64,000 bases of DNA from an uncultured Actinomycetota bacterium (GTDB taxonomy: Bacteria; Actinomycetota; Actinomycetes; JAHEKZ01), in contig CAVSDB010000001.1 in NCBI GenBank assembly GCA_963726755.1, positions 1,341,225 through 1,405,224 of the forward strand, given 5' to 3'. This document shows positions 15,591 through 38,107 of the stretch, in pieces. The notes beneath the pieces are model-generated. The model did no database searches. It was not told the origin of the DNA and saw only the letters and a program-made list of their open reading frames with translations. The position numbers and the translations under genes were made by a program. Each line of letters starts with the position of its first letter. Position 1 is the stretch's first letter.

Positions 15591-15624
15591 GCTCGGGGCC
15601 ACACCGTGTGGTGTGCCCCCGAGC
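15591..15624 (-). terminator. hairpin terminator downstream of pilA copy 1
   Basis: GCTCGGGGCCACACC/GGTGTGCCCCCGAGC near-perfect stem. No strong U-tract (an I-shaped terminator, common in actinobacteria). Confidence 0.4.
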
Positions 15625-15663
15625 CAGTTGCATCTGATTCACCCTGGGTAGTACAATGGGTGA

Positions 15664-16077
15664 TCAGTTGTTCACGCAAACGCCGCCGGCAGCCTGGAGG
15701 CCACCGTCGTTGCTGTCGTAGATCCAGTTGGCCTGCGAACCAGGCTGCGCACCGGCGATACGAGTGATGGTCACGCAGTAAGACGAACCGATGGTCGAAA
15801 CGGCCACCGCTGCGTTGTTACCTGGCGAAAGCTTGACTGCAGCAGGAACCGCAGCCGGGTAGGTCTGAGTGTCAGTGAACGCAGTTTCCATCTCGTTGGC
15901 CACCGCGCGAGCGTCAGCCTTCATCGATGCGTCAACAGCCTTCTGACGCTGGTTCAAGAACACCGGGATAGCAATAGCAGCAAGAATACCGATGATGATA
16001 ACGACGACCAGGAGCTCGATGAGGGTGAAGCCTTCCTCATTCTCGTCCATGGCCTTACGGATGCGAGCGAGCATCAT
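15664..16077 (-). CDS. pilA: type IV major pilin PilA, copy 1
   Basis: Track ORF 15664..16128 trimmed to the MM start with GAAGGGA ribosome-binding site. MMLARIRKAMDENEEGFTLIELLVVVIIIGILAAIAIPVF is a canonical type IVa prepilin leader plus N-methyl-Phe helix. Confidence 0.85.
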   Translation of the reverse strand: MMLARIRKAMDENEEGFTLIELLVVVIIIGILAAIAIPVFLNQRQKAVDASMKADARAVANEMETAFTDTQTYPAAVPAAVKLSPGNNAAVAVSTIGSSYCVTITRIAGAQPGSQANWIYDSNDGGLQAAGGVCVNN

Positions 16078-16317
16078 TTGTCCCTTCAGGACGTAACGGT
16101 GAGCCGTACGGCGCTCGCCCTGGACCACCCCTAAGGGCTGACCGAGGTAGCTGGGCTAACCACATGGGTCCCCTGGCTTTGCGAACCCGCCTCACGACGG
16201 GAGTGCCTTGTCTGGCCGGTTGGCTCTTTACAAGTACTGTTTCGACCCCCCACATACCCGTCTTGAGCCACGATGATCACAGACTTCACCGGCGAGTTCC
16301 ACCGCTGACAACAAGCA

Positions 16318-16351
16318 GACTCGGGGCCACACCGTGTGGTGTGACCCCGAG
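16318..16351 (-). terminator. hairpin terminator downstream of pilA copy 2
   Basis: ACTCGGGGCCACACC/GGTGTGACCCCGAGT, paralogous to the copy-1 hairpin. Confidence 0.4.
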
Positions 16352-16395
16352 TCCTGCTAGTGATAATGCGATCAGATGATCTGGTGATCAGCCGA

Positions 16396-16809
16396 TCAGT
16401 TGTTCACGCAGACCCCGCCGGCAGCCTGGAGGCCACCGTCGTTGCTGTCGTAGATCCAGTTGGCCTGCGAACCAGGCTGCGCACCGGCGATACGAGTGAT
16501 GGTCACGCAGTAAGACGAACCGATCGTCGAAACGGCCACCACTGCCTTGTTACCTGGCGAAAGCTTGACCGCAGCAGGAACCGCAGCCGGGTAGGTCTGA
16601 GTGTCAGTGAACGCAGTTTCCATCTCGTTGGCCACCGCGCGAGCGTCAGCCTTCATCGATGCGTCAACAGCCTTCTGACGCTGGTTCAAGAACACCGGGA
16701 TAGCAATAGCAGCAAGAATACCGATGATGATAACGACGACCAGGAGCTCGATGAGGGTGAAGCCTTCCTCATTCTCGTCCATGGCCTTGCGGATGCGAGC
16801 GAGCATCAT
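16396..16809 (-). CDS. pilA: type IV major pilin PilA, copy 2 (one amino-acid difference from copy 1)
   Basis: Track ORF 16396..16860. Identical 154-aa translation except SPGNNAAVAV vs SPGNKAVVAV. Confidence 0.85.
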   Translation of the reverse strand: MMLARIRKAMDENEEGFTLIELLVVVIIIGILAAIAIPVFLNQRQKAVDASMKADARAVANEMETAFTDTQTYPAAVPAAVKLSPGNKAVVAVSTIGSSYCVTITRIAGAQPGSQANWIYDSNDGGLQAAGGVCVNN

Positions 16810-17270
16810 TTGTCCCTTCAGGACGTAACGGTGAGCCGTACGGCGCTCGCCCTGGACCACCCCTAAGGGCTGACCGAGGTAGCTGGGCTAACCACTGGGT
16901 CCCCTGGCTTTGCGAACCCGCCTCACGACGGGAGTGCCTTGTCTGGCCGGTTGGCTCTTTACAAGTACTGTTTCGACCCCCCACATACCCGTCTTGAGCC
17001 ACGATGATCACGACTTGGCATCACACCCAGACGGCCCAACGTCCAGTGGCGCCTTCAAGAGCCGGCGTGCTCTGCGCGCTCCTTGATCCCATGGAACGTC
17101 CCGCGAGCCATGACAGATCGGCGGGGATGATGGCCATGAGCTGCGCAGCGAGTTCGTGTGGGGATCCACCTCACGACGGTGAAGAAGGCAGTCCCGGCCC
17201 AAATGGCTTCGGGGCTGGTGTCGATGGTGATCGCAGGGTTAGTCGCGACCTGCGGACAGGCTTCCCCTGA

Positions 17271-17694
17271 CTAGCTCTCGATCATGCTTGGGCGAAACCT
17301 CCGACCTGACACTGCATCGACCTCGACACGCACAAAGACCGGCTTAGGGCCTCGTTGCCAGGCGATGACCGGCAGACTCAAAACTGTCAAGTATTTCGTG
17401 AACGTTCGTCAGGGAACGAGCTCGTCCCTTGAGCACGACGCTCCACGCCTCGCCGGATTCTTGGTCCACTCCGTCAACCTCGAAGGCGACGCGGTGCCCA
17501 TCTGCCGCGTTGAGTTTGGTCCCGAGCGCTGTTCGGAACATCACCGTGCCGTGGTCGACCAGATGGTTGACCGGGAAGATCTCTGGCTGCTCGTCCAAGA
17601 CCACTGCCAGCCGCCCCACTTGCGCACTTCGGACTAGATCCCAACAGGTGTTATCTCGAAGCACCTCGATCGCATCGGTTCCGTCTTGTTGCAT
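17271..17694 (-). pseudogene. pyridoxamine 5'-phosphate oxidase family / F420-dependent-like small enzyme; C-terminus frameshifted near 17345
   Basis: Track ORF 17344..17694 (116 aa PPOX-like). The expected C-terminus PVFVRVEVDAVSGRRFRPSMIES* is in another frame immediately downstream. Confidence 0.5.
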
Positions 17695-17805
17695 GTCTGA
17701 CCTCCCATCGACCGTTCACCGGTTCCACCTTGGGCCGAGCGGCGGTGCCTTACCCGGGCAAGAAGTCCCGATGTTTTGCTTTCGCCCCTCCCCTAGGGTG
17801 AATTC

Positions 17806-19428
17806 GTGGATCCTGGCTCCGAGCGGATAGCGCGACTACTGGACGCCGTGCTCGCGGTCAGTTCCGATCTCGATCTGTCCCAGGTGCTGTCCCGAATCGT
17901 CCAATCTGCCTGCGATCTGGTCGACGCGAGGTATGGCGCCCTTGGTGTGCTCGCTCCGGAAGGTGAACACCTGGTCGAGTTTGTGACCCAGGGACTCTCC
18001 GACGCGAACGGCGGGCTATTGGCGACCTGCCGCACGGGCGAGGAATTCTCGGATTGCTGATCCGTGACCCTCAACCGCGACGCGTCCGCGACATCGCGAC
18101 GCATCCGGCCTCCTACGGTTTCCCGCCAAACCATCCGCCTATGCACAGCTTCCTGGGGGCGCCCATCGCCATCCGCGGAAGAGGTGTTCGGCAACCTCTA
18201 TCTGGCCAACAAGCAAGACGCACGTGGAGTTCAGCGCAAGACGATCAGGAAGTCGTCGTCGCGTTGGCCGCGGCTGCTGGCGTCGCCATCGACAACGCGC
18301 GCCTGTACGACCGATCGCGCCGGCAACGCGAACTCGCTGACGCGCTTGCCGAGATGACGCAGCATCTTCTGGAAGGCATGGAAACCGACGCGGCCCTTCG
18401 CTTGATGGCCCGGCGCAGCGCTGAGATGGCGGTTGCCGAGCTCGCCGTCGTGGCGCTGTATGACGAAGGTGGTCGACTTACCGTCCGCGCGACCAACGAC
18501 GAACGACCCTCGCATGGTGTTGGCCTTGAACTTGACCCCGACTTTCGATGGAGCGAGTTGGTCGCACGCCGGTTGCCATATCTCATTTCCGAACCCGACC
18601 AAGACTCGAACACCGAGCTGGCTGAAATCCGACAACTGGGTTCACTGGATCCCGACGGTCCCACAGCGATCGTCGCCATCGCAGTCGGTGACGCCGAGCT
18701 CGGGGTGCTTGGCGTCGCATGGAACTCTGACCAAGACGTTGCCGCCCGTCAGTCACTCGACTCTTTACACACCTTTGGGCGAACGGCTGCGCTAGCCCTC
18801 GAGGCAGCAACTGCTCAACGTGAGCGTGGGCGGGTAGCACTTCTTGAGGATCGAGACCGAATCGCTCGAGACATGCATGACCACGTGATTCAACGGCTGT
18901 TCGCCACCGGACTGTCGTTGCAGTCGACCAGGCTGATGACGTCGGATGACGCGGTGTGCCAGCGACTCGACGAGGCCGTGGACGCGATTGACGTGGCGAT
19001 CAAAGACATTCGAGAGGCGATCTTCGCGTTGCATCGTCCGATCGGAGGTCTTGGTGTTCAGGCCGAAGTCGACGAACTTGTCCGCCACGCCGGCCGCACG
19101 CTGGGGTACAACCCAGAGGTCAGCACGAGTGGATCGTGGGGCTCTCTGCCGTTCGGAGATAGAGCCGGAGTTGTTGGCAGTCGTCCGCGAGGCCCTGTCG
19201 AACGTCGTTCGCCACGCTCAGGCGAGCTGGTGTCGAGTGTCGGTCCACGTGACCGATTCGGTTGTGAGAGTCGAGGTGGAAGACGACGGAATGGGGATTC
19301 CCAAGGACGCTGAGTTGAGCGGACTCAGGAATCTCGAGCGACGAGCTGCCCGGCTCGAACGGCAGCCTGCAGTTGGCCGCTCGCCATCCAACGGGAACCG
19401 TCCTCATGTGGCAGGTGCCGGTCAAGTA
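17806..19428 (+). pseudogene. GAF-GAF-HisKA_3-HATPase sensor histidine kinase (DevS/DosT-like); at least 5 frameshifts
   Basis: ORFs 17806..18060, 18054..19313, 18064..18357 (GEEVFGNLYLANKQDARG GAF signature) and 18946..19524 (HATPase: LAVVREALSNVVRHA...VEVEDDGMGIP). HisKA_3 RDRIARDMHDHVIQRLFATGLSL. The true C-terminus LAARHPTGTVLMWQVPVK* is in yet another frame. Confidence 0.7.
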
Positions 19429-19435
19429 GGGCAGG

Positions 19436-20078
19436 TCAAGAGTCAGGTTGCTGTTGGTGGGTTACCGCAAACACCGCAGCCTGCGTTCGACGCTGCATGC
19501 CGAGCTTTCCCAGTATCGACGTGACGTAGTTCTTGACCGTCTTCTCGGCCAGCGACATCGATTCGCCGATTTGCGCGTTCGTCTGTCCGTCGGCAATGTG
19601 TTGCAGAATTCGTCGCTCCTGCGGAGTTAGCGCTGACAGTCGAGGATCTGTTCGAGTGTCGCCCCAGCGGTCGCGGATCTGCGCGCGACGCGCTTCGTCG
19701 ATCAGTGACTCACCGGCCGCCACCTTGCGTATCGAGTCGACCAGAGTGTTTCCCTTGACGTCCTTAAGTACGTACCCGGCAGCACCGGCGCGATCGCGCT
19801 TGACCAGCGCCTGCTCGTCGTCGTACGACGTCACGATGAGCGCTGCGATGCTGGGATCAACGGAACGAATGTCTCGACAGGTATCGATGCCCGACCCATC
19901 GGGCAGCCGCGCATCCAACAGCGCGACATCGGGACGAAGCGCCGGAATCCTGCGAGTTGCTTCGAGAGCCGAACCCGGACTCTCCGACCACTTCGATGTC
20001 GTCCTCGCGCTCGAACAACTCTCGGAGCCCGCGTCGGACGATCTCGTGATCGTCGAGAATGAACACCCGAATCGTCAT
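19436..20078 (-). pseudogene. NarL/LuxR-family response regulator (DevR-like); one frameshift near 19950
   Basis: Receiver N-terminus in ORF 19857..20078 (MTIRVFILDDHEIVRRGLRELFERED). Rest, including the HTH (LTPQERRILQHIADGQTNAQIGESMSLAEKTVKNYVTSILGKLG), in ORF 19436..19918. Confidence 0.75.
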
Positions 20079-20172
20079 CGTCGTCCGTCAACCCCAATCG
20101 TCTTGGCAGTCGAACGATAGTGGCCTCTCAGACTATGACGCGACCGACGGACTATCGGCAATACTCCCGTCA

Positions 20173-21395
20173 CTACTTGATGAGGTCGAAGACCTTGAAG
20201 ATGGGCATGTACAGGGCGATGATCATGCTTCCGACGAGACCACCGAGCACTGCGATCATCAGTGGCTCGATCAGCGCAGTCAGCGACTCCGTGGTCGACT
20301 CGACTTCTTGGTCGTAGAACTCACTGATCTTCTCGAGCATGGCGTCCAGCGCACCGGTGTCTTCACCGACCGCCAGCATCTGCACGACCATGGGCGGGAA
20401 GATCGCGTGGTGGGTGAGTGGTTCGGTGAGCGACTCACCATTGCGGACGCTGTCCTGGACGTCGCGAACAGCTCGTGCCACCACGACGTTGCCCGACGTG
20501 TCGGCAACGATGTCGAGGCTCTGCAGGATCGGGACACCGGCGTGGAGCATGGTGCCGAAGTTGCGAGTGAAGCGGCTGAGCGCAATCTTCTGGAACAGCG
20601 GGCCGAAGACCGGGATCTTCAACTTGATGGGGTCAAGGACGTTACGTACTTGCTCCTTGTGCTTGATCTTCTTCCAGATGATCACGAAGGCGATAAGGCC
20701 AATGGCGATAGGGATGAAGCCCATCTTCAACAGATCGCTCAACTTGACCAGCAGCAGCGTGGGAGCAGGCAGTTGCGCGCCAAGACCTTCGAACATCTTG
20801 GCGAAGATCGGCACGATGAACAGCAACATGCCGGTCACCGCGAGAAGCGCCATCACGAACACCACAACCGGGTAAGTCATGGCGCTCTTAATCTTGCCCT
20901 TGAGGCGTACTTCCTCTTCATAGTTCGCCGCAATACGAAGCAGCACACCGTCCAAGAATCCGCCGACCTCACCGGCTCGAACCATGTTCACCATGAGCGG
21001 TGGGAAGACTGCCGGGTGTTCGGCCGAGCGCGCCGGAGAGCGCGTTACCGTTTTCCACGCTGTTGCGGACCTCGCCCAGGACTCCTGCCAAGCGTCTTGT
21101 TGGGAGTCTGCTCCGAGAGAATGTTGAGGGCACGCATGAGCGACAGACCGGCACCGATCATGGTGGCGAACTGTCGCGACATGACCGCGATGTCCTTGAG
21201 CTTGACCGAACCGCCGAATCCGGGGATCTTCAGTTCGGTCTTCATCCCAGCTTTGTGCTCGGTGATGGTGACCGTCGCGTAGCCCAGGCTTGACAGTTTT
21301 TGTGCCACCGCGCCCTGGGACTCGGCCTCGATCGTCCCCGTGACGATCTTGCCCGCCTTGTCCCGGACCTGGTACTGGTACATCGTCGTTCCCAT
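20173..21395 (-). pseudogene. pilC: type IV pilus platform protein PilC (GspF family); 2 frameshifts
   Basis: N-terminus in ORF 21045..21395, a short middle piece in ORF 20969..21154 (LAGVLGEVRNSVENG), C-terminal two-thirds in ORF 20173..20994. Confidence 0.8.
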
Positions 21396-21415: not shown

Positions 21416-22472
21416 TCAGCCGCGGCCGGTCAGGCGGTTGAAGTCTTCGATGTGATGAGACTTCTCAGCACCGGTTTCGTACGTGATGCGACCCTTGTTC
21501 ACCAGGTCCGCGAGGTGCTGGTCCATCGTCTGCATGCCGTACTTGGTGCCGGCCTGCATGGAGCTGTAGATCTGGTGAGTCTTGCCTTCACGAATCAGGT
21601 TCCGGATGGCTGGAGTTGCCACCATGACCTCGCAGGCCACAACGCGGCCCTTGCCGTCTGCCGTGCGAGCCAAGGTCTGGCAGACGACACCCTGGATGGC
21701 GGTCGCCAACTGAGCGCGCACCTGCTGCTGCTGGTGCGGGGGGAAGACGTCGATGACACGGTCGATGGTCTGCGCCGCGTCCTGGGTGTGCAGGGTCGCG
21801 TAGACGAGGTGACCAGTTTCAGCCGCAGTTAGCGCAACAGAGATGGTCTCGAGGTCACGCATTTCACCGACCAGGATGATGTCGGGGTCCTGACGCAGCA
21901 CGTGCTTGAGCGCGTTCTGGAAGGACTTGGTGTCCTCCCCCACTTCGCGCTGGTTGACCAGACACGACTGGTGGCGGTGCAAGAACTCAATCGGGTCCTC
22001 ACACGTCATGATGTGGTCTTTGCGGTTTCGGTTCGCCATATCCACCAAGTGAGGCCAGGGTCGTGGACTTGCCCGATCCAGTTGGTCCGGTGACCAGCAC
22101 GAAACCTCGCGGGAGCATCGAGAAGTTGGCAACCGACTTGGGAACCCCCAAGTCCTCGAGCCGCTTGATTTCGAACGGAATGATTCGGAAGGCAGCGCCG
22201 ACCGCGTCCCGCTGCCGATACATGTTGACTCGGAATCGAGCCCGACCTGGGACTGAGTAGGCGAAGTCAAGTTCGAAGACTTCTTCGAAGATCTCTCGTT
22301 GGCGCTGGGTGATCGCCGCGTACATCACGCGCTGGATGACCGGCGGAGTCAGGACCGGGTACTCATCCATCTGGAGTGAGTTCACCGTTGACGCGAATCG
22401 CGGGACGTGCCCCAGCCGTCAGGTGAAGGTCGGACGCGCCTCGCTCGAGCATGGCGAGCAGCAGGTCGACCA
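21416..22472 (-). pseudogene. pilT: twitching-motility retraction ATPase PilT; at least 2 frameshifts
   Basis: N-terminus (..DLLLAMLERGASDLHLTAGARPAIRVNGEL) found by hand at ~22380-22470, then ORF 21999..22385 (Walker A LVTGPTGSGKSTTLASL), then ORF 21416..22270 (IEFLHRHQSCLVNQREVGEDTKSF...). Confidence 0.8.
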
Positions 22473-22542
22473 AGATGATGTCTTCGCCGCCCAGCGCGGC
22501 TCGGTGCTGACTCGAGAGTAGGACTCCTCGTTCGCCTCGGAC

Positions 22543-23266
22543 TCAGCCAGCTCCATCGGCGCGCTCTCGGTGCTGCCTTCGACGACCGACATGGCAACCG
22601 GTCCCAGGCTGGTCTCGACCATGATCATGGTTCTCAGGTTCCGCGGGCTCTTCGACGGGAGGCGGAAGTACGTATTTGCTCTCGGCCGCCTCAGCGAGCT
22701 CTGACAGTGCACTGGTTGCCGGCGTCTCGGAGACCTGCGCTTCGGAGTCGCTGGATGAAGCCTCGTCCGTTGGCTGGTCGCTGTAGAACGCCTCGTACTG
22801 CGAGGTCGGCGCGTTGGGGTCCGGCAGCGAGTCAACGTCCACCGCTGCAGCTTCTTCGGCGGCGATCGCCAACGACATCGGCAGGCCAGCTGCTTCCATC
22901 GTGATCGGTGCCGAGTCATCAAAGTCGGCGAGCGCAAAGGTCGTCGGCTCGGTGTTGTCGGTTTCGGGGCTGTTGGGCTCGGGGCTGTCCGTGACCGGTG
23001 TCCGTACTCGAGTCGAGTCCCGAATCCGAGACCACGTCGCTGAAACTGTCCGTCAACGGGTCCGGCGTCGAGTCCTCCGGGACCGAAGTCGGCTCTGGTG
23101 GCTCGGTCGCGACAAAGCCATAGTCAGTAGTTGGTCGCGGGTCGTCGCCCGCGGGTGCGCCACTGAACTCTGAGGTTTCCACTGACAGGCCTCCCTTAGC
23201 CACCTTGCTGTCACGCGCGCTCGGTAGCGGCGTTCCTCCTGCGTCCCATCGGCGTACCGGGCTCAC
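22543..23266 (-). pseudogene. acidic Pro/Ser/Asp/Glu-rich low-complexity protein of unknown function, split over 2 frames
   Basis: ORFs 22919..23266 and 22543..22899 are both strongly acidic and disordered-looking. The overlapping Arg-rich ORF 22419..22937 is the alternative frame. Sits between pilB and pilT. Confidence 0.35.
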
Positions 23267-23279
23267 CCCTTGAGTCCCC

Positions 23280-24977
23280 TCACGAAGAACTAGTCCGCCA
23301 ATAGCCAGCTAGACCACGACGCGCAGGATCTCGTCGAGTGAGGTGACACCCTGCAGCACCTTGGACAGGCCGTCCTCGCGCAGCGTGACCATGCCTTCTT
23401 CGCGGGCCGCGACGGTGATGGCTGCCGACGAAGCGCGTTCGACCGCCAGCCGCTCGATGTTCTCCGAGACGGCCATCACCTCGTGCAGGGCCAGTCGGCC
23501 CTTGTAGCCGGTCTTGGAGCAGGCCGGACACCCGATGGGCCGATACAGCGTCGGCAGCGGCGTGCCCTTGCTCCCACGGGAACCGCGCGGCAACCATGGC
23601 CTCAGCGGTCGGCTCGTAGGCTTCCTTGCACTTCTTGCAGAGTCGACGGGCCAGGCGCTGGGCGAGCACACCGTCCACCGCCGATCCGACAAGGAACGGC
23701 TCCAGACCCATTTCCGTCAAGCGGGTGATGGCCGAGGGGGCGTCGTTGGTGTGCAACGTGGAGAGCACCAGGTGGCCGGTCAGGGCCGCCTCAACGGCGA
23801 TCTGGGCCGTCTCGTGGTCACGAATCTCACCGATGAGCACGATGTCGGGGTCGCATCGAAGGATCGAGCGAAGTGCCGCGGCGAACGACAGTCCAGCTTT
23901 GACGTTCGTCTGCACCTGGTTGATGCCAGCGAGTCGGTACTCAACCGGGTCCTCGACGGTGATGACGTTGACCTCAGGACGAGCGATCTGGTTCAGCGTG
24001 CCGTACAGCGTCGTGGACTTGCCAGAACCCGTTGGTCCGGTGACCAGGATCATCCCGTAGGGCTTGGTGAAACTCGACGAGTAGATCTCGTAGTTGTGGT
24101 CTGAGAACCCGAGGTCAGTCAGCGCCATCGCGGCCTGCGAGTTGTCCAGGATTCGCATGACGACCTTCTCGCCCCACACCGTTGGAAGGGTGGCGACACG
24201 AAGGTCGATCTTCTTGCCGTTGTAGTTGACCGACAAGCGGCCGTCCTGCGGTACCCGTCGTTCAGCAATGTTGATGTCCGACATGATTTTCAGTCGGCTG
24301 ATAACACCGGACTGGATGTTCTTGGGCGACTTCATCACCTGGTGCAGGACACCATCGATGCGGTACCGGACGACGAGCGAGTGCTCGCCTGGCTCGAGGT
24401 GAATATCCGATGCGCGGTCCTGAATTGCCTGCGTAATAAGCAAGTTCACGTACTTGACGATGGGGGCGTCTTCGACGACCTCTTTGACCGACGAGAGGTC
24501 TTCGTCGTCGGCGTCGTTGTCAAGAACCGCCGTGAGGTCATCGAGGTCGGAGTCAGCGCGGTAGTACCGGTCAATGGCCGAGAGAACATCCGCTCGAGTA
24601 GCGACCACTGGCTTGACGTCATAGCCAGTGATCGATCGAACGTCGTCGATCGCGAAGACGTTCGCTGGGTCAGCCATCGCCAGCAGGAGCTTGCCCTCGT
24701 CGTCGACGCGGAGCGGCATCACGCTGTACTTGCGACAGATCTCGCCCTTGACCCGGCCGACGATGCTGCCGTCAACGGGATAGTCGGCCAGGTCGACAAA
24801 CTCAAGTCGAATCTGCTGCGCCAATGCCGCCACGAGCTGGGACTCGGTGAGGAAGCCTCGATCGACCAGAATGCGGCCGAGTGCCTTGCCTTCGGTCTTG
24901 TGCATCTGGAACGCCTCGGCGAGCTGGTCTGCCGTAACCAGGCCGCTCGAAATCAAGATGTCGCCCAGTTGCGTCAC
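23280..24977 (-). pseudogene. pilB: type IV pilus assembly ATPase PilB (GspE family); C-terminal frameshift near 23600
   Basis: Track ORF 23280..24977 carries the N1 domain, Walker A VTGPTGSGKSTTLY and the CKKC zinc motif. The true C-terminus (YRPIGCPACSKTGYKGRLALHEVM...LDEILRVVV) is in ORF 23309..23692. Confidence 0.85.
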
Positions 24978-28117: not shown

Positions 28118-28977
28118 TTACTGCTCCCCTTGAGCGATCCCGCGTTCTCGCAATGCCTGTAAACCGGCCAACCGCAGGATGTCCGGGTCCACTTCGAGAC
28201 CGGTCATCAACCGCACCTGTTCGACCGCCTGGAAGACCAGCATCTCAAGTCCCCCAGTCACCAGCCCGCCAGCCTTTTGCCACAGTCGCGCCAACGGAGA
28301 TGGCCAGGGGTCGTAGACCACGTCGACCAAGTGTCCGGGCGAACCTGGGACGTCGTCGAGGGCTAGCGGCTGGGCGTCCACGGGCAGCGTCGAGACGACT
28401 ACGGGGACCGCAATTTCCTGCGCTAACGGTGGCCAGGATCCGGTCGCAGCCGCTAATCCGAATTCTTGGGCCAGCGCCACCAATTCGGCGACGGCTGCGG
28501 AGCTGCGGGCACAGATCGTCACCGGGCCAGAATTGACCTCGGCCAGCGCGGCCACAGCTGACCGGGCCGTGGCACCAGATCCAAGGATCGTCGCTGGCGA
28601 CGCAGCGGTCGAAGCCGATGTGACGAAGCACCTCGGCCAGTCCGTAGACGTCGGTGTTCCAGCCGCGCGACCCCGCCTTACTGAAAATGACGGTGTTGAC
28701 GGATCTGAGCGCTTCGGCTCGTGAGTCGATGGAGCTCAGCAGCGGTATGACCGCTTCCTTGAGCGGCATCGTCAGCGACAGACCTACCCACCCCGCGTTC
28801 GGCGCGTCGACGATGGCCTCTGAAGAAATCGGGTAGTTGTTCGCGCGAAACGTCGACGGCTTCGTAGCTCCAGTTCAGACCGAGGTGCTCGTAGGCGGCG
28901 CGATGCAGTGCCGGTGACAACGAGTGGCTGACCGGGTGACCGAGGACAGCGGCACGTCGAGCTGCGGACGATGCCAT
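28118..28977 (-). pseudogene. aroE: shikimate 5-dehydrogenase; 2 frameshifts
   Basis: ORFs 28678..28977 (N-terminus AAVLGHPVSHSLSPALHRAAY), 28245..28769 (middle SVNTVIFSKAGSRGWNTDVYG) and 28118..28555 (C-terminus), in three frames. Confidence 0.7.
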
Positions 28978-36849: not shown

Positions 36850-38107
36850 GACAGTCGTCCCTTCAACGTGGCAACTAACTCGGTCAACTTCACCGGCTGC
36901 TGGTCACCAGACTCCATCTCTTTGACTCCGGCGACGCCGTCAGCCATGTCACGCTCCCCCAGTACGACGGTGTACCGCGCGCCAGAGCGGTCCGCCGACT
37001 TCATTGCGCCCTTGAGTCCCTTGCCTCCGTACTCGAGGTCGGCGCGCACTCCAGCTTGACGCAACTCCGCGAGCAGTTTGACCAAGTACGTCTTCGCTTC
37101 GTCACCCAGCGGCACCAAGAACACCTCGACGCGCGCCGCCGACCCCGGCTCGACTTCCTCCGCGACACACGCCAGCAACGTGCGATCGACTCCCAGACCA
37201 AAGCCAATGCCAGGAAGTGATTGACCGCCCAACATTTCAAGCAACCCGTCGTACCGACCGCCGCCACCGATCGCGGACTGCGCCCCGAGCCCGTCGTGCG
37301 CGAACTCGAAGAGCGTGCGCGTGTAGTAGTCGAGGCCCCGGACCAAGCGCGGTTCGTCTTCCCAGGTGACGCCAAGCAGTCGCAGGTACTCCTTGAGCGA
37401 ATCGTGATGTGCCTGGCACGCCTCACATAAGTGGTCTGAGATAAGCGGTGCGTCGACGAGTTGCGCCTGCACCTCAGGACGCTTGTCGTCAAGCACACGC
37501 AACGGGTTCACGGCCGCGCGCTCGCGCGTTGGCTCGTCCAGGTCCAACGTCGCCAGGAACTCCTGCAGCACGCGCACGATACGCGGGACGGCACTCAGCG
37601 CAGCCCAGCGAGTTAAGCAGTAACCGAACGCGACTCAATCCGAGCGCCCGATACGACGTCCACGCCAGCCAGATGACCTCGGCATCGATGGCCGGGTCTG
37701 ACGATCCGACGGTCTCGACACCGACCTGCGTGTGCTGTCGGTAGCGACCAGACTGTGGCCGTTCGTACCGGAAGTTGGGGCCGGTGTACCAGACCTTGAC
37801 CGGCAGTTGGCCCGCGGTCGAGCCCGTTCTCCGCGATGGCCCGCAACACTCCAGCCGTGCCTTCGGGACGAAGGGTCAACGATCGCCCACCGCGATCCTC
37901 GAAGGTGTACATCTCTTTGGTGACGACGTCCGTGGACTCTCCGACGCCTCGGACGAAGAGCGCGGTGTCCTCGAACATCGGGGTGTCGATGAATCCGTAG
38001 CCAGCCGAACGAGGGGGCGCAGACAGTGCCTCACGCACGGCAAGCCAGGAAGCAGACTGCGGCGGGACGACGTCGTACGTTCCCTTAGGCGCGCGAAATA
38101 CCGTCAC
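36846..38107 (-). pseudogene. hisS: histidine--tRNA ligase; 2 frameshifts near 37825 and 37580
   Basis: N-terminus in ORF 37613..38107 ([13 protein letters not shown]...[11 protein letters not shown]). Middle ([34 protein letters not shown]) in another frame. C-terminus in ORF 36846..37577. Confidence 0.8.

Follow-up and report, generated by a model that had tools for sequence, protein, structure and literature searches.

An uncultured actinomycete has, between its pilC and pilA genes, a sensor kinase gene and a response regulator gene, both with broken reading frames in the deposited sequence. Is this pair a working gas-sensing module, a decaying one, or a control device for the pili? We analysed it within the surrounding 64 kb of DNA, here called the window. 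Judged from domain matches and alignments, we consider it likely that the locus holds a genuine and probably intact DevS/DosT-DevR module together with a PNPOx/FDOR-like gene, that this module was inserted between pilC and the riboswitch-pilA unit, and that its indels are assembly errors. The features are collected in Table 1.

Table 1. Features of the locus; positions are those of the window.
Feature	Position	Strand	Basis or type
DevS/DosT-type sensor histidine kinase gene	17806..19429	+	Pfam, PDB matches, homologue alignment
DevR/DosR-type NarL-family response regulator gene (REC + GerE)	19436..20078	-	Pfam, PDB, alignment
PNPOx-like/FDOR-type small flavoprotein gene (Pyridox_ox_2), putative	17271..17694	-	Pfam PF12900, PDB 6eci
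Candidate Dos/OsdR-type box GGGCAAGAAGTCCC	17756..17769		one mismatch to GGGMCNNNNGKCCC; motif from PMC5069765
pilC (context)	20173..21395	-	Pfam T2SSF x2; stitched protein vs intact PilC
pilA copy 2	16860-16396	-	flanking gene
pilA copy 1	16128-15664	-	flanking gene
Lineage-specific insertion	16981..20172		blastn/alignment of pilC-downstream DNA and gene tables, L081, L082, L085, L086
c-di-GMP-I riboswitch aptamer, pilA copy 2 leader	16875..16948	-	Rfam RF01051, 42.5 bits
c-di-GMP-I riboswitch aptamer, pilA copy 1 leader	16143..16217	-	Rfam RF01051, 42.4 bits
Kinase indel	~18004		1-nt deletion; frameshift-aware alignment
Kinase indels	~18180, 18226, 18237 (18236-9), 19152, 19356 (19354-7)		each +1 nt; frameshift-aware alignment
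Regulator indel	~19976		+1 nt; homologue-guided alignment
pilC indels	~21092, 21025		two +1 nt insertions

The kinase, the regulator and the flavoprotein gene

With its six frame-disrupting indels removed, the kinase gene reads from a GTG start to a TAG stop (19427-19429) and encodes 538 amino acids. The frame-stitched protein matches the Pfam families GAF_2 (residues 22-164), GAF_3 (204-334), HisKA_3 (351-412) and HATPase_c (455-536), in agreement with the GAF-GAF-HisKA_3-HATPase architecture read by the earlier note. The best PDB matches of GAF-A are the GAF-A domains of DosT (2vzw, E 3e-44) and DosS (2w3d, E 1e-38), and the ATP-binding domain has matches in 3zxq and 3zxo. At the level of the alignment, the similarity to DosT is far above chance.

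The DevS/DosT likeness that had been proposed is borne out by aligning GAF-A to DosS and DosT, where the haem-ligating His is found and most of the haem-pocket contacts are kept. The proximal His (DosT H147, DosS H149) lies in NHPPM, opposite HHPPM of DosT, and the distal Tyr (DosT Y169, DosS Y171) in FGNLYL, in register with the same motif of DosT; the former is the haem ligand and the latter forms the hydrogen bond to the bound ligand (PMC4082495). Like DosT, the kinase has a Gly at the position of DosS Glu87. Among the other haem contacts of DosT, Ile109, Gly110, Leu112, Gly115, Arg116 and Gly117 are kept. Tyr98 is replaced by Thr, as also in the close homologues aligned, and Glu114 by His. 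These two substitutions in the DosT contact list (PMC4082495), and the many different ligands that GAF domains bind, would fit a kinase that is DevS-like by descent but in which GAF-A senses something other than diatomic gases via haem, be it another ligand or none. With 59% identity to the GAF-A of M. tuberculosis DosT, and with both the His-Tyr pair and the six contacts in place, we regard this as very improbable and continue with a haem-binding GAF-A as the expected state.

The catalytic residues are intact as well. The phospho-accepting H-box His (DosS H395) is assigned from the HisKA_3 match, DRIARDMHDHVIQRLFATGLSLQ is invariant in the kinase and its close homologues in guided alignments, and the repaired protein has the H, N, G1 and G2 boxes and zero in-frame stops. 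Homologues with an intact frame (544-600 aa) are numerous, the closest of them being 63-66% identical; they include Angustibacter, the closest named relative (63-64%). An N-terminal extension of about 40 aa, found in most homologues, is missing here and is also missing in the intact protein of Angustibacter luteus P0008. A remnant of this extension 5' of GTG 17806 was considered but is unproven, as it needs two further frame changes and the similarity is weak.

The regulator starts at an ATG (20078) and ends at a TGA read on the reverse complement (19436-19438). Its Pfam domains are Response_reg and GerE, and among solved structures it comes closest to full-length M. tuberculosis DevR (3c3w, E 2.4e-62), with VraR as the next match (3e-36). 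The similarity to DevR is, again on the alignment, far above chance. The Asp of VALLDARLPDG, the Thr of TSY and the Lys of YVLKD are all present, that is, the phospho-acceptor Asp54 (LDARLPDG) is kept, and the DNA-recognition stretch AEKTVKNYV is identical in the two proteins. Within this stretch lie Lys179, Lys182 and Asn183 of DevR, which we take to be the DNA contacts of the DosR-DNA structure. The kinase-adjoining regulators of the two closest loci (L001 and L002) are 79-82% identical to the one described here. The earlier note's reading of a DevR-like LuxR-family regulator is supported.

The third gene is divergent from the kinase and has its stop at 17271-17273. It contains one +1 nt insertion, near 17400, and only when both frames are stitched does the PF12900 match cover positions 3-140 of the 140 in the profile (E 1e-25). 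The protein also matches PDB 6eci (E 3e-22), and of the 80 related loci about 10 have homologues close to the kinase. An adjacent PPOX/F420-type gene of a class typical of dormancy regulons had been claimed, and the Pyridox_ox_2 match fits such a regulon, since the DosR regulon includes FDOR proteins, among them Rv0080, Rv3129 and M. smegmatis Fsq (PMC13284343). Our search for literature on PDB 6ECI found nothing, so we do not claim that the protein is identical with Fsq.

Origin of the frame disruptions

An uninterrupted kinase frame is absent from the deposited sequence. The six indels were mapped by frameshift-aware alignment to four intact homologues (544-576 aa), and the regulator has one; at least five and one had been counted before. 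The earlier note took both genes to be possibly non-functional in the strain or in the assembly. To separate these, the remaining genes of the window are informative. As GC3 filtering is too weak at 62% GC, they were called by Viterbi segmentation on codon usage, for which intact housekeeping genes served as the training set.

Approximately 34 frame-disrupting events are spread over the 64 kb, including hisS, aroE, ruvA, ruvC, secD and acn. All but one of the 24 well-supported events are +1 nt, and no stop codon accompanies them. Single Pfam domain matches cross the frame junctions in hisS (2), an MBL hydrolase (2), aroE, ruvC and ruvA, as well as in an amino-acid permease (3), pilT, pilB and the PNPOx-like gene. 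Homologue-guided alignment gives two events in aroE, one in pilB, two in pilT, two in pilC and one in the regulator, all of them +1 nt. The aroE events lie near 28821 and 28622, those of hisS near 37824 and 37602. The repaired PilT, PilB and PilC are 90%, 83% and 80% identical to intact proteins, and the stitched PilC, at 406 aa, is 80-88% identical to intact PilC proteins of 406-407 aa. Split housekeeping genes are seen in a related long-contig assembly (L081) too, and the kinase fragment of the window derives from an unannotated contig of 1.5 Mb.

The events are overdispersed: six fall in the 1.6 kb of the kinase, although the window as a whole averages about 0.5 per kb, and none in the combined 6.5 kb of alaS, relA and aspS. 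Some of the kinase indels could therefore be real. Of 176 columns with at least 95% conservation, the repaired kinase deviates at 8 and its nearest relatives at 1-4; the changes are mostly conservative, and we do not count this mild excess as evidence of decay, since the branch to those relatives is long and confounds the comparison. Among the k-mers at the frame junctions none is convincingly enriched after multiple testing. CGAACGG/CCGTTCG was rejected as a general error hotspot, as it occurs at three of the six kinase events but at none of the 15 other such sites in the window.

From these observations it can be argued that the two genes are true pseudogenes, a module that decayed after it had entered the pilus cluster. 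The kinase has the highest local indel density of the window, the raised deviation at conserved columns, a short N-terminus and three events on a motif that is not a hotspot elsewhere. However, natural decay would mix indel sizes and directions and add stop codons, while the events here run in one direction, come without nonsense codons or larger deletions, also hit essential or highly conserved genes (hisS, aroE, ruvA, ruvC, pilT and pilB), and leave the catalytic and haem-pocket residues intact. We find decay unlikely. That the dense +1 nt breaks are real and rescued by recoding is scarcely credible.

Since hisS, aroE, ruvA, ruvC and the pil genes show +1 nt events of the same kind, the seven indels of the pair are most likely consensus errors of the assembly and not gene decay, and the dead-looking pair is probably alive. 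Of the two possibilities left by the earlier note, a defect of the assembly is the one favoured, and a defect of the strain is not. A caution follows for the use of this contig: with about one single-base insertion per 2 kb, "pseudogene" calls from this assembly are unsafe.

Position in the pilus cluster

The kinase, the regulator and the PNPOx-like gene all lie between pilC and pilA, and the kinase and the regulator converge, as stated before, with 6 nt between their stop codons and not the 8 bp given earlier. The same convergent layout recurs in the two closest loci. In five syntenic relatives, pilC is instead directly followed by a conserved c-di-GMP-I riboswitch and pilA; RF01051, with a gathering score of 35, scores 50-55 bits directly 3' of pilC in L081, L082, L083, L085 and L086. 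Compared with L081, L082, L085 and L086, the window has about 3-3.2 kb of additional DNA, which begins just past the pilC stop and extends as far as the conserved leader with the riboswitch in front of pilA. By this alignment, the kinase-regulator-PNPOx module is a lineage-specific insertion. A 732-bp tandem duplication in the window includes the leader aptamer of pilA copy 1. The riboswitch is the control element observed for pilA; it does not depend on the DevS/DevR-type module, and it is older than the insertion.

Redox or gas control of piliation had been suggested from this position, and the module would then couple O2, NO or redox sensing to the expression of type IV pili. Two routes can be imagined: the regulator could be co-transcribed with pilB-pilT-pilC, or a DevR-type protein could bind at the pil promoters. 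The first is helped by the location of the module physically inside the pil cluster and by the short distance between the pilC stop and the regulator start, 94 nt downstream on the same strand, with no terminator-like site predicted in the spacer. For the second, the box motifs of the Dos/OsdR type, including GGGMC-N4-GKCCC (PMC5069765), were searched. With up to one mismatch allowed, no such box was found 5' of pilA, of pilB or of the regulator gene, and boxes at this cut-off are not enriched in the window. The M. tuberculosis Dos core with at most two mismatches has 37 matches in the window against 62 expected, and the 20-mer Dos consensus at 14/20 or better has 8 against 10.5; neither is enriched, and neither has a match at the pil promoters. 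The sole perfect OsdR-like palindrome (23488-23501) is set aside as a chance match: it lies in the pilB coding sequence, where it encodes the conserved KGRLAL, about 1.5 are expected, and it is absent from the relatives.

Further, pilA retains its conserved c-di-GMP-I riboswitch leader just as in the module-free relatives, and pil genes occur within 10 kb of the kinase relatives in 0 of 80 loci. As the adjacency is known from a single lineage, conservation gives no functional link to the pil genes. Coupling of the module to pilus expression is distinctly unlikely, and its control over the pilus genes is not supported, as nothing beyond adjacency speaks for it. Less likely still is the fuller version, a hypoxia/NO module within the pilus operon in which the regulator is read through from pilB-pilT-pilC with the pilin leader downstream of the module, so that pili and gas or redox sensing are linked at the level of transcription beside a c-di-GMP riboswitch. 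If the link were true, it would be a first case of a Dos-type gas sensor connected with type IV pili in actinobacteria.

A more local target can be proposed. The candidate box of Table 1 falls within the 111 bp that separate the PNPOx-like gene from the kinase gene divergent to it, and it is one of only seven matches with at most one mismatch in the 64 kb. In the 80 related loci, perfect boxes of the GGGMCNNNNGKCCC form show a 3.7-fold enrichment in front of the kinase. This box is a lead for a regulator target, with a chance match at about 1-3%; it could be chance.

Proposed mechanism and known systems

We suggest, by analogy with the mycobacterial homologues, that the inserted module would work as follows. 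GAF-A of the kinase would bind haem through the conserved His, and O2 on this haem, hydrogen-bonded to the conserved Tyr, would keep the kinase off. In the deoxy, NO- or CO-bound state the kinase would phosphorylate itself on the H-box His (RDMHDHVIQ), and the phosphate would pass from there to the Asp of the regulator. The regulator could then bind GGGMC-N4-GKCCC boxes, a likely target being the one-mismatch candidate in the divergent promoter region of the kinase and the PNPOx-like gene. The biological weight of such a module is small. It would be an ordinary haem gas-sensing two-component system of the DevS/DevR type, systems found widely among Actinomycetota (the kinase has over 8000 relatives in the database at E <= 1e-30), and only its unusual chromosomal position is new.

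The order GAF-A/GAF-B/HisKA_3/HATPase_c is shared with M. tuberculosis DosT (Rv2027c) and DevS/DosS (Rv3132c). However, the kinase described here comes from a non-mycobacterial uncultured actinomycete, has a shorter N-terminus, Thr in place of Tyr98 and six frame disruptions in the assembly, and is convergent with its regulator and not in the same operon. The small flavoprotein resembles Rv0080, Rv3129 and Fsq, as it is likewise a split-barrel PNPOx-like protein of about 140 aa, encoded beside a Dos-type system; PF12900 alone does not tell apart FAD, FMN, F420 and haem as its cofactor. A further likeness to the DevR and OsdR systems may lie in the candidate GGGMC-N4-GKCCC box (motif from PMC5069765) that adjoins the kinase with one mismatch; in relatives, perfect boxes occur in front of the kinase. 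The regulator has the full-length alignment, the phospho-acceptor Asp and the recognition stretch in common with DevR/DosR (3c3w). In contrast to DevR/DosR and to OsdR (SCO0204) of Streptomyces coelicolor, no cluster of universal stress protein, nitroreductase and nitrate reductase genes surrounds the module, and a single FDOR-type gene adjoins it. The pilin genes next to it belong to another known type of control. c-di-GMP riboswitches govern major pilin genes such as pilA1 of Clostridioides difficile, and a c-di-GMP-I aptamer likewise lies in the pilA leader both in the window and in the five related loci.

Organisation of the module

In a six-frame reading, the plus-strand gene is split over all three frames, while the minus-strand gene is split once. 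After stitching, the plus-strand product (538 aa) contains the Pfam domains of a GAF-GAF-HisKA_3-HATPase kinase, the architecture proposed in the earlier note. The pair does lie between pilA and pilC and is convergent, as described there; however, the gap from stop to stop is 6 nt, not 8 bp. The PNPOx-like gene is divergent from the kinase, with a spacer of 111 bp, and its product matches 140 of the 140 Pyridox_ox_2 profile positions once the frames are joined across a single shift near 17400. Among solved structures, 6eci is closest to it (E 3e-22). Rv0080, Rv3129 and Fsq, which are FDOR-superfamily proteins, belong to mycobacterial dormancy regulons (PMC13284343), so the earlier note's remark on a gene class typical of dormancy regulons is reasonable, with this gene as a putative F420-type member.

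At 17704-17806, the sequence weakly resembles, with jumps between frames, the N-terminal extension (AWPQLGAL...) found upstream of GAF-A in most homologues. This may be a decayed remnant of the extension or a chance match. The extension is also missing in the intact Angustibacter luteus P0008 homologue.

Coordinates of features in the window and of aptamers in related loci with pilC followed by pilA (L081, L082, L083, L085, L086)
Feature	Position	Strand	Remark
Kinase gene	17806 (GTG) to 19427-19429 (TAG)	+	
GAF_2/GAF	residues 22-164 of stitched kinase		Pfam
GAF_3	residues 204-334 of stitched kinase		Pfam
HisKA_3	residues 351-412 of stitched kinase		Pfam
HATPase_c	residues 455-536 of stitched kinase		Pfam
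1-nt deletion	~18004		kinase
1-nt insertions (n=5)	~18180, ~18226, ~18236-9, ~19152, ~19354-7		kinase
Regulator gene	20078 (ATG) to 19436-19438 (stop)	-	
Response_reg + GerE	stitched minus-strand product, 213 aa		Pfam
PNPOx-like gene	17694-17271	-	Pyridox_ox_2 (Pfam)
Candidate box GGGCAAGAAGTCCC	17756-17769		111-bp kinase/PNPOx-like spacer; GGGMCN4GKCCC, <=1 mismatch
Lineage-specific insertion	~16981-20172		regulator, kinase, PNPOx-like gene and ~300 nt more
pilC	21395-20173	-	flanks module
pilA copies (n=2)	16860-16396 and 16128-15664	-	flank module on other side
c-di-GMP-I riboswitch aptamer	16875-16948	-	RF01051, pilA leader, 42.5 bits
c-di-GMP-I riboswitch aptamer	16143-16217	-	RF01051, other pilA leader, 42.4 bits
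Related aptamers	L081 11292-11366, L082 11290-11364, L083 1667-1741, L085 5027-5101, L086 1839-1913		RF01051

Frame breaks in the window

The kinase DNA was aligned to four intact homologues by a frameshift-aware dynamic programme, and all four alignments agree on six events. The regulator has a single +1 nt event, at ~19976. Both counts fit the at least five and one frameshifts claimed before. The repaired kinase has no in-frame stops and keeps its H, N, G1 and G2 boxes.

The whole window was segmented by a codon-usage Viterbi model, and the stitched translations were then tested against Pfam. In hisS, the tRNA-synt_His match (1-306 of 308) spans two frame junctions (~37824, ~37602), and a single domain match in an MBL hydrolase also spans two (~38709, ~38628). 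An amino-acid permease match crosses three junctions (~54606, ~54519, ~54075), while aroE, ruvC (~48606), ruvA (~48333), pilT, pilB and the PNPOx-like gene each have a domain match across one. Inspection by eye adds splits in secD, the minor pilins, pilC, a TrmA-like methyltransferase and the N-terminus of acn (~51582).

Using intact proteins of the syntenic relative L082 as guides, we count two events in aroE (~28821, ~28622), one in pilB (~23561), two in pilT (~22374, ~22049) and two in pilC (~21092, ~21025). All are +1 nt, no stop codons are found, and the repaired proteins are full length and 52%, 83%, 90% and 80% identical to their guides, respectively. Stitched PilC has 406 aa; among the 120 matches listed, relatives have 406-408 aa and are 71-88% identical. 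In total, the window contains ~34 events per 64 kb, almost all +1 nt (23 of the 24 best-supported) and without stop codons. An acidic coding stretch of low complexity, read over several frames, separates pilB from the PilT ATPase core (22414-23266, minus strand). As PilT of L081 and L085 has 547-565 aa, it probably represents a long N-terminal PilT extension that further insertions have broken.

The frame breaks are best explained as assembly-wide single-base insertions from consensus or basecalling error, and not as natural decay, because essential single-copy genes are broken, the single-base signature is one-directional and nonsense mutations are absent. The window's own 419-aa kinase fragment is an unannotated singleton from a 1.5 Mb NCBI/ENA contig, in agreement with this reading. 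In L081, a relative on a long contig (2.9 Mb, ENA ERZ25039503), the YceG/MltG and chorismate synthase genes are split (1724-2472, 20134-21166), which suggests that this sister assembly has the same kind of error.

True pseudogenisation of the kinase and regulator is improbable. It would fit the overdispersion of events, with six per 1.6 kb in the kinase against none in alaS, relA and aspS (6.5 kb), and the departure of the repaired kinase at 8 of the 176 columns that are highly conserved, where its nearest relatives have 1-4 departures. However, these departures are mostly conservative and the window kinase sits on a long branch; moreover, essential genes share the +1 nt breaks and there are no nonsense mutations. 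Three of the six kinase events (18005, 19149, 19356) coincide with CGAACGG/CCGTTCG sites, a further point for pseudogenisation; the motif also occurs without a frame change at a fourth kinase site (18780) and 15 others in the window. Consensus error remains our preferred reading, and the module is probably intact in the organism. It had been proposed that both genes may be non-functional in the strain or assembly: the same +1 nt events in essential genes favour the assembly, and dead genes are not favoured. Given this signature, pseudogene calls from contig CAVSDB010000001.1 are unreliable.

Insertion site and proposed control of the pilus genes

Gene order in the window is that of a block conserved in actinobacteria: nusB-efp-pepP-aroQBKC ... 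pilMNO ... minor pilins ... pilA ... pilC-pilT-pilB ... aroE-mltG-ruvX-alaS-rarA-aspS-hisS ... relA ... secFD-yajC-ruvBAC ... acn. In L081, L082, L085 and L086, where PilC is 80-83% identical, the order is alaS-ruvX-mltG-aroE-...-pilB-pilT-pilC, with pilA directly after. From ~40 nt past the pilC stop, the relatives' DNA aligns to the window from ~16980 downward, skipping the module, and also to a duplicate at ~16250. From this alignment, the module segment is a lineage-specific insertion into the type IV pilus cluster of one uncultured actinomycete lineage. Base composition across it is not unusual. Among 80 loci with kinase relatives, none has pilA, pilB, pilC or pilT homologues within 10 kb and ~10 have a PNPOx-like homologue near the kinase; the two closest (L001, L002) share the convergent layout.

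Both pilA leaders contain a c-di-GMP-I aptamer scoring above the RF01051 gathering score of 35, and in five related loci without the module, one (50-55 bits) immediately follows pilC. Based on this conservation, a c-di-GMP riboswitch appears to control the major pilin of the lineage. A 732-bp unit, made up of the riboswitch leader, pilA and a hairpin terminator of 16-17 bp, is present as a tandem duplicate (15592-16323 and 16320-17055, 98-100% identity). The two PilA copies differ by two residues, while the two pilin genes of relatives at this site are distinct. The duplication may be a genuine, recent event or may stem from the assembly.

The best solved relative of the regulator is full-length DevR (3c3w, E 2.4e-62), with VraR at 3e-36. 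The acceptor Asp (LDARLPDG) and the receiver-site Thr and Lys are present, and the recognition stretch AEKTVKNYV is identical to DevR's, bearing out the proposed DevR-like LuxR-family regulator. No NCBIfam equivalog cut-off is reached. Since the recognition helix is identical, Dos-type boxes were searched. In the window, the M. tuberculosis core GGGACN4GTCCC gives 37 matches at <=2 mismatches (62 expected), the 20-mer consensus eight at >=14/20 (10.5 expected), and GGGMCN4GKCCC, widened to take in the Streptomyces OsdR consensus (PMC5069765), seven at <=1 mismatch (17 expected). The upstream regions of pilA, pilB and the regulator contain none of these matches. The sole perfect palindrome in the window, GGGCCAGTCGGCCC (23488-23501), lies over the KGRLAL codons inside pilB; it was rejected as a regulatory site, as ~1.5 matches would arise by chance and the relatives' pilB lacks it.

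Across the 80 relatives, perfect GGGMCN4GKCCC boxes are 3.7-fold enriched in the 350-nt region upstream of the kinase (13 in 27.9 kb; the rate elsewhere is 0.128 per kb). Together with the candidate box in the kinase/PNPOx-like spacer, this makes autoregulation of the module plausible.

The suggestion of redox or gas control of piliation finds no support, as boxes are absent upstream of pilA and pilB and the kinase loci lack pil genes. On the same strand, the regulator follows pilC after 94 nt, and no terminator-like site is predicted in this gap. This proximity is the sole point favouring pilus coupling, and it is adjacency, not evidence.

Comparison with DosS, DosT and DevR

Among solved structures, the kinase is closest to the haem-binding GAF-A domains of M. 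tuberculosis DosT (2vzw, E 3e-44) and DevS/DosS (2w3d and mutants, ~1e-39), and the C-terminus resembles the ATP-binding domains of DosT and DosS (3zxq, 3zxo). Over 145 residues, frame-corrected GAF-A and DosT GAF-A share 59% identity (residues are numbered as 2vzw chain index + 59). NHPPM, which is HHPPM in DosT, contains the proximal ligand His147 (DosS His149), and FGNLYL, with the distal Tyr169 (DosS Tyr171), is the same in both; the roles of these pocket residues are reviewed in PMC4082495. At the position of DosS Glu87, the kinase has Gly, as does DosT. DosT haem contacts are mostly conserved (Ile109, Gly110, Leu112, Gly115, Arg116, Gly117), while Tyr98 is replaced by Thr and Glu114 by His. 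GAF-A thus retains its haem-pocket residues, as expected of the DosS/DosT-like sensor first proposed.

The kinase family is very large, with at least 8000 relatives at E <= 1e-30 (all 8000 candidates scored). Intact relatives range from 544 to 600 aa; identity is 63-66% for the closest, among them Angustibacter peucedani and A. luteus. The module is a bona fide DevS/DosT-DevR-type system, a new example within a well-known family.
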